Source: Negativicutes bacterium
GTDB taxonomy: Bacteria; Bacillota; Negativicutes; JAAYSF01
Direction: 5' to 3'
Assembly: GCA_028707635.1 (NCBI GenBank)
Contig: JAQWAQ010000001.1
Location: 51,336 to 115,335 of the forward strand
DNA: 64,000 nucleotides
Below the pieces are notes generated by a model. The model saw only the letters and a program-made list of their open reading frames with translations. It did not search any database and was not told the origin of the DNA. Positions 1,413 through 6,239 of the stretch are shown in pieces; within the stretch, counting starts at the first letter, position 1, and every line of letters starts with the position of its first letter. Made by a program: the position numbers and the translations under genes.

Positions 1413-3176
1413 TCAAGTATTGCGGTCATTGTCCCTCGACCATGTTATGTCGTCTCTAAATTGGCTCTGATTGGCCATCTGTCGACTGCGTTCATTAATT
1501 TCCCGAACTATATTTTTCATGTATTTCGAACTGCCCGACATAATATCATGCAACGACCTGCTTTTAAATTTAAGTAAGTCCTGTCTAGTAGTGTACCCGA
1601 TTGCTTCAGTCATCATCAAGTATTCGTCGGAAATATCCGTTGGTATACCCAGACTCAAAACCTCCGATCTCAATTTGCCTGTTTCTTTTAACAGATCAGA
1701 ACTACTCATTCCTTGCAGGGAATAACCGAGATCTTTCCATAATTCAGTGGGTTTGTATATAGAATACTCATACCTCATGAATGTTGATATAAAATCAGGA
1801 TTAACGGAAAAACCGTATTCATCAGCCCTTTCCATCCACTGCGTTTTTGGAAATACTCCAGGTGGATTTATAATAACAGTGTCTGGATTCGAAGCTTTTA
1901 TAAGAAGCATATTTTCGTGGAATACATCCTCAAGCGTTATACCGTCAGTAACGGGGCAGGGATAGATTAGTGACAGACCGATTTTGCAGTTTCTCCCAAC
2001 ATCTGCGGCAGCCAACTTGATACAATTCATCGTATCAATAAGGTCCTTTCTTGTAACACCTTTGTTCATTATCTTCTCATTAATATAATCGTGCCCCGTC
2101 TCGCCACCAATAAACACCGCTCTCAATCCGGCTCTTATCATACAGCGATACGCTTCATATACTTTGGGTGTTACTTTTACTGCCCGGGCAAACATAGAAA
2201 AATTGATATTTACATCCTTTTTTAATATCTCTTCGGCGATTCTCCTACCGTGCTCAAGAGGAGTTTCAGAACTGCTGAATCTAAAAAAAGATATTCCCTG
2301 CCTTGATAACAATTGAATTTCATCCGCAATATTACTAGCAGGGCGCGGCTGATATGGCCTGGTCTGTCTGGTATGAGAACAAAAACTGCAGCGATTCCAC
2401 GAGCATCCAAATCCGTCAACGAGAGTATGAAAATATATCTTTCCTTCCAAGTCGACCGGCCTGTAGTGTGGAATGGTAAAGTATTTATCGCCGATACTTT
2501 CATTCTCATTATAGACGCCCGTTTTGATTAACTTTGAACTATCGTTTCCATTTTGAAAAGCGTCCAAAAATTCTTTTTTGTCTTGAACCTGTCGGCGTAA
2601 GACAATCATTTCTTCTAATACCTTTTCTCCAGGACCCATAATCGCAAGATCAAAATCGGAATTTAACAAAAGGTCTTCACCATATACCTTCACATGCGGA
2701 CCGCCGGCAATAATTACTGTATTGGGACAGTGTTCTCTAACCCTCGCCGCTAGCAAATTACTCCAGCTAAAAGCGTCCCCGTACCATACTTTTACTCCTA
2801 AGAATTCAATATCTTTATCTTTAATTGTTTTAATTATGTCATCGATTCTACTTCTAGTATATACCTTTCGGTAGTATAACGAGAGAGCCTGAACAGGCCA
2901 AGTCAGAAGCATAACGATGAACCAGAGGAACTTTAGCTTCCTATTATAAATCTTCATTTGTAAATTTATCATGTTTCTTAATAAATCAAGGCACCATTGA
3001 GGCACTCCATCCTCGACAGATGTTACCCTTTGATCGTCAACAATTTCAACCAAGCAACCCTTACTTTCTAAATATGTCCTTAGAATGGCTAAGCCATTTT
3101 CTAATGCTGCATCTGAAGCAATTCGTTGCCGAGGTGCGACGCTGTTAACAAGAAGTATATCTAGTTTGTTTTTCAC
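1413..3176 (-). CDS. B12-binding-domain radical SAM enzyme with a non-canonical CX4CX2C cluster motif
   Basis: 587 aa. The N-terminal half has a Rossmann-like B12-binding signature (VIIAGGPH). The central motif is GFGCSWNRCSFCSH, i.e. C-x4-C-x2-C rather than C-x3-C-x2-C, and the C-terminal TIM-barrel half is glycine-rich. It starts with GTG and overlaps the upstream gene's stop as GTGA. Its AGGAGG RBS lies inside the upstream gene's last codons. Confidence 0.75.
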   Translation of the reverse strand: MKNKLDILLVNSVAPRQRIASDAALENGLAILRTYLESKGCLVEIVDDQRVTSVEDGVPQWCLDLLRNMINLQMKIYNRKLKFLWFIVMLLTWPVQALSLYYRKVYTRSRIDDIIKTIKDKDIEFLGVKVWYGDAFSWSNLLAARVREHCPNTVIIAGGPHVKVYGEDLLLNSDFDLAIMGPGEKVLEEMIVLRRQVQDKKEFLDAFQNGNDSSKLIKTGVYNENESIGDKYFTIPHYRPVDLEGKIYFHTLVDGFGCSWNRCSFCSHTRQTRPYQPRPASNIADEIQLLSRQGISFFRFSSSETPLEHGRRIAEEILKKDVNINFSMFARAVKVTPKVYEAYRCMIRAGLRAVFIGGETGHDYINEKIMNKGVTRKDLIDTMNCIKLAAADVGRNCKIGLSLIYPCPVTDGITLEDVFHENMLLIKASNPDTVIINPPGVFPKTQWMERADEYGFSVNPDFISTFMRYEYSIYKPTELWKDLGYSLQGMSSSDLLKETGKLRSEVLSLGIPTDISDEYLMMTEAIGYTTRQDLLKFKSRSLHDIMSGSSKYMKNIVREINERSRQMANQSQFRDDITWSRDNDRNT

Positions 3177-4580: not shown

Positions 4581-6239
4581 TTAAATATTAAAATGTACGA
4601 GAAAAGTAGTGCCTTTTTGGCTTGTTTTAACATTGATGGTAGCATCATGCCTACTGGCAATTCGGTAGCATATCGGTAAGCCTAACCCAGTTCCATTTTC
4701 TTTCGTTGTTTGGAATGGTGTTCCTAAATTCTCAAGAATATGCGTAGGGATGCCGCATCCTTGATCTCTAATTGCCAAGACAACCTCGTTGTTGTCTTGG
4801 CACGTACTGATGTGCAAAATTCCTCCTTGTGGCATTGCCTCTAGACCGTTGCGTACAAGGTTAAGTAAAAGCTGACGAATCTCATTTTCATCCAGATACA
4901 AAAAGGGTATATCGCCAAGTTCTCGAGTTATACCAATGCTACGAGCAATGGCATCGGCCTCAAGCAATGGTAACAAGGAATTAATAACGCTATTTAAATC
5001 TTTTTTTTGTAGCTCAACTAACTTATTTTGCGCTAGAGACAGGTATTCTCGAATAATTGAATTAGTTCTATCCAATTCATCAATCATGAGTTCAAATCTT
5101 TCTTTATATAAAACAAAATCGCCTTTGGTTAACATCATTTGCAAGTAACCACGAACTGTAGTTAGAGGATTCCTAATTTCGTGTGCTACATTAGCAGCCA
5201 TCTCACCGATCATATTCATTCTATCCAGACGAGACACGCTTTGTTCTAATTTTTTTCGCGAAGTGACATCCCGAATAATACCTTCGAGTGATACGATATT
5301 TCCTAATTGGTCAAAACGGCGGACAACATTCTGTTCTACCCAGCTTATGGTTTTATCCCGCCGAATTATTCGTAACATAAGAGGTACTGTATTTGAATGA
5401 CGCTGATTTTGAATGAAGTTCTCAAATAGTGGTACATCGTTCGGATGCATAATGTCGAATAGTAGTCTCGCATCATTATAATAATCCTGAGGCGTGTAGC
5501 CTGTAACAGCCGTAACAGATGGACTAATATATTCAAATTTAGCCTCGGGCAGGACTTTATAAAGATAAATGACATCAACAGCATTCTCTGCTAACAAGCG
5601 ATATTGAGATTCCTTTTGGGCTAAATTGGATCTTGTTTGTTCTAAATAAAACATTAGACTAGCAATTGCAACGCCGAGTCGTAAGACGCCCTCTATCATA
5701 TAGCCCCATGGGGCAAACCAAGGCACATCAATGAAAAAAGGCATATCAAACGTATGTATTCCCCAAAAAATAAACAAATACCCCAGAAAGCGGTTACTTA
5801 GGAACTCTGCTTCCAGATAGTTCAAGAAACACATACCAGCCCATATACATACAGTACCGCAGAACCAAGTAAGAGGTACAAGCCTGTAAGAAAGTGGCAA
5901 ATCAAAGAAATTAAGTATGATACTCAATAAAAAGGTACAAACCCCGCCGATTATCCAACGAATATTTATTGGTTTAGCAGCAAAGAGATATGCTGCCCAA
6001 AGAAACAATATACTACTGCAGAGTAAAAGAATTGAAAAAATTGCAAACCCCCATATGGAATTAATCCAATCAAACATACCAGAGTCAAAAAGAATAAGCC
6101 GAAGAAAAAGAGCAACCCAACTAACCACCCACACGCCCATACTGAAATCACGGTACATTACGTAAAGATACAAATATACAATTATCATGGCAAATGTTCC
6201 AACCGTAGCACCAATAATAATTGTGTGAAAAAGTTCCAT
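4581..6239 (-). CDS. Membrane-bound PAS sensor histidine kinase (sporulation-kinase-like, KinB-type architecture)
   Basis: 552 aa. About 190 aa of polytopic membrane domain are followed by a PAS domain. The HisKA H-box is VAHEIRNPLTTVRGY. HATPase_c motifs are present (GTGLGL). No response regulator is adjacent. Confidence 0.85.
   Translation of the reverse strand: MELFHTIIIGATVGTFAMIIVYLYLYVMYRDFSMGVWVVSWVALFLRLILFDSGMFDWINSIWGFAIFSILLLCSSILFLWAAYLFAAKPINIRWIIGGVCTFLLSIILNFFDLPLSYRLVPLTWFCGTVCIWAGMCFLNYLEAEFLSNRFLGYLFIFWGIHTFDMPFFIDVPWFAPWGYMIEGVLRLGVAIASLMFYLEQTRSNLAQKESQYRLLAENAVDVIYLYKVLPEAKFEYISPSVTAVTGYTPQDYYNDARLLFDIMHPNDVPLFENFIQNQRHSNTVPLMLRIIRRDKTISWVEQNVVRRFDQLGNIVSLEGIIRDVTSRKKLEQSVSRLDRMNMIGEMAANVAHEIRNPLTTVRGYLQMMLTKGDFVLYKERFELMIDELDRTNSIIREYLSLAQNKLVELQKKDLNSVINSLLPLLEADAIARSIGITRELGDIPFLYLDENEIRQLLLNLVRNGLEAMPQGGILHISTCQDNNEVVLAIRDQGCGIPTHILENLGTPFQTTKENGTGLGLPICYRIASRHDATINVKTSQKGTTFLVHFNI

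Follow-up and report, generated by a model that had tools for sequence, protein, structure and literature searches.

Three minus-strand genes near the start of a 64,000-nucleotide stretch of DNA from a Negativicutes bacterium (GenBank assembly GCA_028707635.1, contig JAQWAQ010000001.1, positions 51,336 to 115,335; the whole stretch is called the window, and coordinates without a locus number refer to it) raise the question of which of their products work together, and to what end. They encode a membrane histidine kinase with a PAS domain, an enzyme that joins an acyl-synthase domain to a cyclic-nucleotide-monophosphate (cNMP)-binding-fold domain (hereafter the synthase), and a B12-binding-domain radical S-adenosylmethionine (SAM) enzyme. 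The original prediction, made from the letters of the window, had coupled the synthase to the radical-SAM enzyme as a natural-product or signalling-lipid module gated by a cyclic nucleotide, with the kinase beside it. We find that the conserved unit is the kinase together with the synthase, and on a tentative reading the locus may be a self-contained signal-synthase/receptor-kinase cassette, analogous to LuxM/LuxN, AinS/AinR or CqsA/CqsS. The three genes, delimited by open reading frame (ORF) and by Pfam match, are as follows.

4581–6239, minus strand: gene for the 552-residue sensor kinase.
3173–4351, minus strand: gene for the 392-residue synthase, with a GTG start.
1413–3176, minus strand: gene for the 587-residue B12/radical-SAM enzyme, with a GTG start.

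The arrangement first described for these genes is present in the sequence: the TGA stop of the synthase gene overlaps the GTG start of the radical-SAM gene in a 4-nucleotide GTGA (3173–3176), and an AGGAGG lies inside the synthase gene 8 nt upstream of that GTG (gac ttt AGG AGG ata ata aaG TGA aaa).

To establish what is conserved around the synthase, we scanned one genome per species with the 392-residue protein, which gave 79 loci, 46 of them in Negativicutes, and counted neighbours by tblastn of the three window proteins against these loci and by clustering of neighbouring ORFs. In 44 of the 46 Negativicutes loci, the synthase is immediately preceded, on the same strand, by a full-length kinase homologue, with approximately 42–73% identity (about 50%) over residues 1–552 and a gap of 165–300 nt to the synthase; in the other two the kinase is adjacent in divergent orientation. 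The radical-SAM gene was found in only 7 of these Negativicutes loci. No further conserved neighbour emerged among the clustered flanking ORFs, the flanks being different in every genome, and the neighbour analysis linked no OlsA-like second acyltransferase or other lipid gene, no transporter and no resistance or further biosynthetic gene to the cassette. The conserved unit is thus kinase plus synthase, not synthase plus radical-SAM enzyme, and the radical-SAM gene is an add-on of deep-branching lineages that is dispensable in most cassettes. Of the proposed synthase/radical-SAM system, the close coupling survives, since the two genes usually abut or overlap where both are present, but their pairing as the core of the system does not; the link between kinase and synthase, in turn, is far stronger than could be told from a single locus.

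Searching with the 392-residue protein retrieved 149 clusters, and those with taxon names are Sporomusaceae-type Negativicutes, including Sporomusa, Pelosinus, Acetonema, Anaerospora and Propionispora; an identical copy of the sequence in the database comes from a bioreactor metagenome. Public annotations name the proteins 'cyclic nucleotide-binding domain-containing protein', 'GNAT family N-acyltransferase' and 'B12-binding domain-containing radical SAM protein', and full-text literature searches returned no description of the system. In two Rhodospirillales metagenome-assembled genomes (MAGs), a multi-transmembrane (TM) histidine kinase on the minus strand, with a TM domain that is MASE1-like by eye, is convergent after the synthase homologue (L049, 8837–10441; L051, 8942–10654), which hints that kinase linkage is not confined to Negativicutes.

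The pair is also multiplied within genomes. Among the loci retrieved, single genomes carry 2–4 or more divergent pairs, always in different surroundings (for example Sporomusa acidovorans, S. rhizae, Pelosinus baikalensis and the MAG OH_PBlB_39), with paralogues in the same genome being 32–63% identical in the synthase and 39–74% in the kinase. The whole pair is tandemly duplicated in one locus (L020, 1630–8197), and extra solo kinase paralogues, lacking a synthase, lie beside complete cassettes in three others (L009, 1389–3029; L024, 8567–10222; L048, 3194–4825). Pairwise identities of kinase and synthase are strongly correlated (r = 0.95 over 47 pairs), and their cluster membership is congruent. 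No second copy of the cassette was found in the 64-kb window.

The kinase matches the Pfam families PAS_3, HisKA and HATPase_c, and hydropathy and conservation complete its architecture.

Kinase residues 1–552: about seven TM helices (1–200), PAS (approximately 231–326), HisKA (345–404, H-box AHEIRNPLT) and HATPase_c (450–550).
5625–6239, minus strand: N-terminal 7-TM sensor module, kinase residues 1–205.

Residues 1–200 have no match in Pfam or NCBIfam. With the 7-TM module as query, 557 representative protein clusters match at E ≤ 1e-3, always at the N terminus, and in nine sampled proteins the module precedes PAS together with GGDEF/EAL, HD-GYP or hybrid-kinase outputs. Because the matches are N-terminal and sit on varied output architectures, we take the module to be a modular, uncharacterized membrane sensor domain. 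Its TM part is the most variable and fastest-evolving region of the kinase, with a mean identity of 44% compared to 64% for the kinase core. None of the loci links a response regulator to the cassette.

What the synthase might make is indicated first by its N-terminal domain.

3707–4303, minus strand: GNAT-fold acyl-synthase domain, residues approximately 17–215, with invariant R38, Y42, E45, D62, D65, R131, E168, G171 and G185.

This domain matches the FeeM family PF21926 above its cutoff (32.6 bits compared to 27; E = 8.3e-8; residues 33–184, profile positions 1–148 of 158), and PF21926 appears in the precomputed annotations of most of the 120 homologues listed among the 149 clusters. Acetyltransf_5 is likewise above cutoff (26.2 bits compared to 22.4); Acetyltransf_1 is not matched. 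In the AlphaFold model of the synthase (predicted local distance difference test score of 91.6), the top structural match of the N-terminal domain is FeeM itself (PDB 2g0b), with 173 aligned residues at 11% identity, followed by N-acyl-homoserine-lactone (AHL) synthases. The LuxI/FeeM likeness originally proposed therefore holds for the FeeM hidden Markov model (HMM) and for the FeeM/AHL-synthase fold, but not for two other family models: Autoind_synth (PF00765) gave no match to the 392-residue protein even at E ≤ 1, and TIGR03694 reached only 23.8 bits against a cutoff of 111.95, over synthase residues 19–86. The NCBIfam OlsB equivalogs match weakly, over about 50 N-terminal residues and far below their cutoffs, and a profile search of PDB sequences with the N-terminal domain did not find FeeM, returning only spurious C3 exoenzyme matches. 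Together, these results place the synthase family as a distant, distinct branch of the FeeM/LuxI/OlsB group, as judged by profile and fold comparison.

Fused to it, as had been predicted, is a cNMP-binding domain.

3209–3568, minus strand: cNMP-fold domain, residues approximately 262–381, with a degenerate phosphate-binding cassette.

The domain scores above the Pfam cutoff for cNMP_binding (PF00027; 30.9 bits compared to 27.5, residues 287–364), and its fold agrees with that assignment. Its phosphate-binding cassette, aligned by profile to those of PKG and PKA, reads FGAIGLFCQAIQDVD in the window protein, with FGANGL..H-T-E-D as the consensus of the clade. Throughout the kinase-linked Negativicutes clade, other residues stand in place of the Glu that binds ribose and the Arg that binds phosphate, whereas the distant homologues (L047–L078) keep the canonical FGE...R[ST]A. 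Allosteric gating by cAMP, cGMP or c-di-NMP, which the original prediction had proposed, is therefore unsupported for the window protein, the residues that would hold ribose and phosphate being gone. The cassette region is strongly conserved despite the loss of Glu and Arg, and the domain probably binds another ligand or serves as an interaction module.

The distant homologues also bear on the chemistry of the product. Outside Negativicutes, a class I SAM methyltransferase (Methyltransf_11/25, E of approximately 1e-25) follows the synthase homologue in seven loci from four phyla (L047, L052, L053, L059, L060, L061 and L072, at approximately 8040–9000 in each), belonging to Desulfobulbaceae, Sedimenticolaceae, Flavobacteriales and Synechococcus. 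Since two kinds of SAM-using enzyme are thus coupled to one synthase family, there is indirect support for the view that an acylated product is further modified, possibly methylated; and because these homologues keep the canonical cassette and adjoin a SAM methyltransferase, the ancestral enzyme was plausibly cNMP-regulated and its product methylated. Conserved 'c50' ORFs beside myxobacterial homologues were set aside as wrong-strand ORFs in high-GC DNA.

The third gene encodes a radical-SAM enzyme of class B architecture, in which a B12-binding Rossmann domain is followed by a radical-SAM barrel with a three-Cys motif. Both Pfam domains are above cutoff, as the original prediction would have it (B12-binding, 38.2 bits compared to 32.1; Radical_SAM, 47.6 bits compared to 29.5), and two of its features stand out.

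2379–2405, minus strand: cluster motif C258-x4-C263-x2-C266, G-C-S-W-N-R-C-S-F-C (GCSWNRCSFCSH).
2817–2999, minus strand: helical hairpin, residues 60–120, inserted in the Rossmann-type B12 domain and containing FLWFIVMLLTWPVQAL.

The CX4CX2C spacing is genuine on re-inspection and family-wide, being invariant in 25 of 25 and 107 of 107 family members in two alignments, as are W260, F265 and H268, but there are precedents for it: OxsB, a cobalamin-dependent radical-SAM enzyme, spaces its cysteines in the same way (PMC9204698), and a CX4CX2C megacluster is listed at RadicalSAM.org (PMC9477430). The hydrophobic insertion noticed in the cobalamin-binding half is FLWFIVMLLTWPVQAL, residues 83–98, and it belongs to a conserved structural element: the AlphaFold secondary structure has helices 60–78 and 82–120 between strands 43–46 and 125–129, the position of the hydrophobic stretch is conserved, P94 is invariant in the 25 sequences, and W93 and P94 are each present in at least 90% of the 107. 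It is reasonable to suppose that the hairpin may contact membrane or lipid.

The radical-SAM family comprises 173 clusters at E ≤ 0.001; the 120 listed share at least 49% identity with the query, and those with taxon names are Negativicutes. Further members in Sporomusa sp. KB1, Methylomusa anaerophila and Propionispora hippei all occur in the order kinase–synthase–radical SAM (3 of 3), with synthase and radical-SAM genes abutting or overlapping in otherwise unrelated surroundings, and in the loci looked up the family is seen only inside the cassette. Sporomusa sp. KB1 carries both a three-gene (L080) and a two-gene (L014) cassette. The pairs linked to a radical-SAM gene form deep, mutually distant lineages whereas the large two-gene group is one compact cluster, which suggests that the three-gene cassette is the older form. 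A 656-residue candidate fusion of synthase and radical-SAM enzyme (P0063) proved to be a frameshift artefact, with the C-terminal cNMP part out of frame before the radical-SAM start.

All 14 NCBIfam matches of the enzyme, to curated subfamilies including PhpK, HpnR/HpnJ, BchE, TIGR04072 and the methylases of peptides made on the ribosome and modified after translation (RiPPs), are far below their cutoffs; the best is TIGR04072, 'lipid biosynthesis B12-binding/radical SAM protein' (54.6 bits compared to 360, E = 6.7e-15). Profile searches of PDB sequences gave nothing or a marginal match to the B12 domain of TokK. In fold, the enzyme resembles methylases, a dehydratase and a ring-contraction enzyme to about the same degree, so the chemistry cannot be assigned from it.

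Control of the synthase appears to be dedicated. Between the kinase and synthase genes lie the following elements.

4501–4553, minus strand: intrinsic terminator that ends the kinase gene, AAGAGCUCUCAU...AUGAGGGCUCUU and then a U-run, fold −26.5 kcal/mol.
4352–4470, minus strand: synthase leader, with equivalents directly upstream of the synthase in L001–L048 and L080–L083.
4444–4468, minus strand: AGGAAT-N14-CGTAT motif, after the kinase terminator.
4422–4430, minus strand: very strong Shine–Dalgarno (SD) sequence AGGGGGTGG.
4411–4416, minus strand: start-stop mini-ORF ATG TAG, followed by the synthase SD AGAAGGAGAGG.

The kinase thus ends in its own terminator, a hairpin and U-run, as had been claimed, and an equivalent hairpin and T-run lies 3′ of the kinase in other loci. 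The kinase–synthase spacer is conserved across paralogues with only about 50% protein identity, and its layout is common to about 40 of 47 loci: a hairpin has a very strong SD (GGGGGTGAT or AAGGAGGTGATC) as its 3′ arm; next is a mini-ORF, 1–5 codons long and typically ATG AAA ACG TAA; and after it comes a stretch complementary to the region of the mini-ORF start, with the synthase SD GGAGAGA behind it. A bare start-stop mini-ORF occurs in the window, L003 and L082, and mini-ORFs are present in the deep three-gene lineages too. In the recurrent fold, a three-way junction is closed by pairing of an anti-SD, UUCUCUCC, with the synthase SD.

Folds calculated from 8 nt upstream of CGTA have a mean z-score of −2.45, with 22 of 34 below −1.5 and a best value of −5.6, compared to a mean of −0.45 without those 8 nt; the window's own copy of the leader reaches only −0.93. 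A covariance model (R1) of a hand-defined three-helix structure, built on 19 seed sequences, matches 31 loci at E < 1e-3, 12 of them non-seed, at one site each and immediately upstream of the synthase start; matches in the three-gene clade are weak, and the window's own divergent leader is not matched. In the model-fitted alignment, which leans towards the model, 82.6% of cells pair compared to 47–60% in slid controls, and changes on both sides of a pair number 48 against 20.3 ± 3.3 in shuffles of this same model-leaning alignment. RNAalifold on the raw MAFFT leader alignment gave 5 pairs only and no covariation, a poor result that we attribute to misalignment of the variable loops. Rfam has no match at E ≤ 1 in positions 1–9000 of the window and only chance-level matches in a typical leader (L010, 6700–7100).

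The spacing of the motif A(C/G)AAGGAAT-N14-CGTAT is constant across paralogues and fits a sigma-H-like promoter better than an extracytoplasmic-function (ECF) one. The motif overlaps the 5′ strand of the leader's closing helix, and the UUCUCUCC next to CGTAT seems to belong to the RNA, so the motif could be either a DNA signal or an RNA element. The leader is likely to exert translational control on the synthase, for example by ribosome loading on the mini-ORF that would open the structure, or to act as a 5′ stabilizer.

The surroundings of the cassette in the window are as follows.

1312–1359, minus strand: terminator-like hairpin with a U-rich tail, end of the synthase/radical-SAM transcription unit, fold −20.4 kcal/mol.
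1–1199, minus strand: gene for a DEAD-box RNA helicase, intact and unrelated, downstream of the cassette and running off the window start.
6442–8409: htpG, upstream of the kinase gene.
26242–29276, minus strand: a separate two-component pair, a 211-residue response regulator and an 800-residue hybrid kinase with a receiver domain.

A promoter and terminator scan performed at chance (18 promoter-like sites compared to 16.7 expected) and missed both real-looking terminators. The 173-residue plus-strand ORF at 279–800 is an antisense shadow of the helicase gene. The htpG gene also adjoins the cassette in seven Pelosinus loci (L019, L020, L024, L026, L032, L033 and L046), there downstream of the synthase, and this proximity could be ancestral synteny or coincidence. 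The statement that the window holds no partner regulator for the PAS kinase needs correcting in its wording, as receiver domains are detected at 26.5–27.9 kb, the only ones in the window; they belong to the separate regulator/hybrid-kinase pair, 20 kb from the cassette, and the PAS kinase is therefore still a local orphan.

How, then, might these parts work together? The analysis shows the domain identities and folds, the synteny, paralogy and co-divergence, the loss of the cNMP-binding residues and the conservation of the leader; that a diffusible or membrane signal is made, that the kinase is its receptor, what the radical-SAM step does chemically and how the leader works are inferred. The 392-residue enzyme would N-acylate a small amine or amino-acid acceptor with an activated fatty acyl group, from acyl-acyl carrier protein or acyl-coenzyme A, yielding an amphiphilic small molecule; the translationally coupled B12/radical-SAM enzyme would tailor that molecule, possibly by C-methylation; and the orphan kinase would perceive it through the variable seven-helix domain and phosphorylate an unlinked response regulator. 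Several divergent synthase/kinase pairs in a genome would then be separate signal channels, and the structured leader, with an anti-SD on the synthase SD and a strongly ribosome-binding mini-ORF inside the structure, would add post-transcriptional control.

This reading of the locus as a signalling cassette rests on the acyl-synthase fold, the invariably adjacent kinase with a variable sensor, the co-diverging multi-copy pairs together with solo kinases, the optional tailoring and the dedicated control of the synthase. We hold it at a little short of an even chance because all the evidence is comparative and linked genes share history. Several points weigh against it: a product, ligand binding and phosphotransfer are predictions; common ancestry is by itself enough to make neighbouring genes co-diverge; the loci link neither a response regulator nor a transporter or transcription factor to the cassette; the conserved yet degenerate cNMP-fold domain has no explained role; and a terminator separates kinase and synthase into distinct transcription units. 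A bolder generalization is possible, though we would sooner doubt it than assert it: that spore-forming diderm Firmicutes (Sporomusaceae and relatives) hold an unrecognized family of lipid-type cell–cell channels, each pairing a FeeM/LuxI-fold synthase, its cNMP-fold domain repurposed, with a cognate 7-TM PAS histidine kinase, with several orthogonal pairs per genome, a B12/radical-SAM step of a new subfamily added in older lineages, and every synthase gene gated by a new structured leader whose mini-ORF is a start-stop or has three codons.

The best-surviving alternative, which we consider unlikely, is remodelling of envelope lipids, in which an OlsB-like N-acyltransferase would make an aminolipid (such as a precursor of ornithine or glycine lipid) for the membranes of these diderm Firmicutes, the radical-SAM enzyme would modify its acyl chain, and the 7-TM kinase would sense membrane state as DesK does. 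The synthase is indeed above cutoff for the OlsB-type family Acetyltransf_5 and weakly matches OlsB-equivalog and PEP-CTERM-associated acyltransferase models, but the OlsB matches are confined to those ~50 N-terminal residues, and neither a second acyltransferase of OlsA type nor any other lipid gene is linked to the cassette. The lipid-biosynthesis label of the best radical-SAM match agrees with this alternative, though the match itself is far below cutoff; the conserved hydrophobic hairpin of the B12 domain could dock on a membrane, and the hosts have an outer membrane. Several divergent paralogous pairs per genome, at 32–63% identity, would be unexpected for a housekeeping lipid step, and the fast-evolving TM domain fits ligand diversification better than general membrane sensing.

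Less probable again, and in our judgement decidedly unlikely, is a ligand-regulated protein acyltransferase, in which the GNAT domain, controlled by some ligand of the cNMP-fold domain, would transfer acyl groups to the kinase or to its targets. Fusion of a GNAT to a cNMP fold is a known regulatory design, exemplified by Rv0998/MSMEG_5458, and tight linkage to the kinase would be consistent with a physical partner too. In the mycobacterial enzyme, however, the two domains come in the reverse order, and the synthase lacks the canonical cNMP contacts; its GNAT domain fits the FeeM and Acetyltransf_5 models rather than Acetyltransf_1, with FeeM as its top structural match over 173 aligned residues; and a dedicated B12/radical-SAM or methyltransferase partner suits the tailoring of a small molecule better.

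The model of the original prediction, a natural-product module in which an N-acyl synthase is gated by cAMP, cGMP or c-di-NMP and its product methylated by the radical-SAM enzyme, with the kinase only loosely associated, we regard as very unlikely for this locus. Its domain assignments are correct, and the distant homologues that retain the canonical cassette and adjoin a SAM methyltransferase speak for it; but in the window protein, as in all of the kinase-linked clade, the Glu and Arg that hold a cyclic nucleotide are replaced; the radical-SAM gene is missing from most cassettes; transporter, resistance and further biosynthetic genes are absent; and the kinase, far from being a bystander, is the partner with the strongest conservation. 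A reading as anti-phage defence was dropped, as PADLOC models gave nothing meaningful.

If the signal-synthase/receptor-kinase reading is true, it would matter in several ways. The prevailing view assigns acyl-type autoinducers to the Proteobacteria and peptide signals to the Firmicutes, and one paper (PMC11580390) reports that candidate genes are not known; the Negativicutes are Firmicutes with an outer membrane, among them acetogens (Sporomusa) and metal reducers (Pelosinus) that interest biotechnologists. If this group has a multi-copy acyl-synthase/membrane-kinase system, that would change the picture of Firmicute signalling, give orphan kinases candidate ligands, add a new B12/radical-SAM subfamily with a small-molecule, probably lipidic, substrate, and open a first way into the function of the 7-TM sensor module, which is widespread (557 representative clusters) but unannotated. 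The cNMP-binding domain, which has lost its nucleotide contacts and is still strongly conserved, is an example of domain evolution.

The closest known enzymes are FeeM and the N-acyl amino acid synthases (PF21926; 2g0b), with which the synthase shares a score above the family HMM cutoff and the fold. FeeM differs in having no C-terminal cNMP-fold domain and in not being paired with a histidine kinase or radical-SAM enzyme, and the distance is considerable, with only 11% identity and FeeM missed by the PDB-sequence profile search. The PEP-CTERM/exosortase-associated acyltransferase (TIGR03694) is also FeeM-like, and its family is encoded beside a dedicated two-component system; the cassette hosts lack the PEP-CTERM context. 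To the LuxI-type AHL synthases (LasI, TofI, RpaI and MesI) the likeness is at the level of fold only, Autoind_synth giving no match. LuxI systems pair with a LuxR-type regulator, whereas here the partner is a membrane histidine kinase in a Firmicute host, and use of SAM as acceptor is not indicated.

With the Vibrio pairs LuxM/LuxN, AinS/AinR and CqsA/CqsS, the likeness is one of logic and not of membership: in each, a synthase adjoins a multi-helix membrane kinase that binds a lipid-like autoinducer, and the cassette fits that logic in adjacency, paralogy and co-divergence. LuxM/AinS and CqsA belong to unrelated protein families that are not FeeM-like, and the Vibrio kinases are hybrid kinases that feed LuxU/LuxO, whereas the cassette kinase has a PAS domain and lacks a receiver. 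Rv0998/MSMEG_5458, the mycobacterial cAMP-regulated lysine acetyltransferase, combines a cNMP fold and a GNAT in one polypeptide as the synthase does, but in the opposite domain order, with a Pat-type GNAT, and with the nucleotide contacts that the synthase has lost. Compared with the class B radical-SAM enzymes TsrM, MgmA, CysS, TokK and OxsB, the radical-SAM enzyme of the cassette stands outside the curated subfamilies and carries a 60-residue helical hairpin insertion. All the building blocks come from known superfamilies and the proposed logic has precedents; the interest of the cassette lies in its host group and the multiplicity of its pairs, as well as in a new radical-SAM subfamily, a cNMP domain that has degenerated and a new leader.

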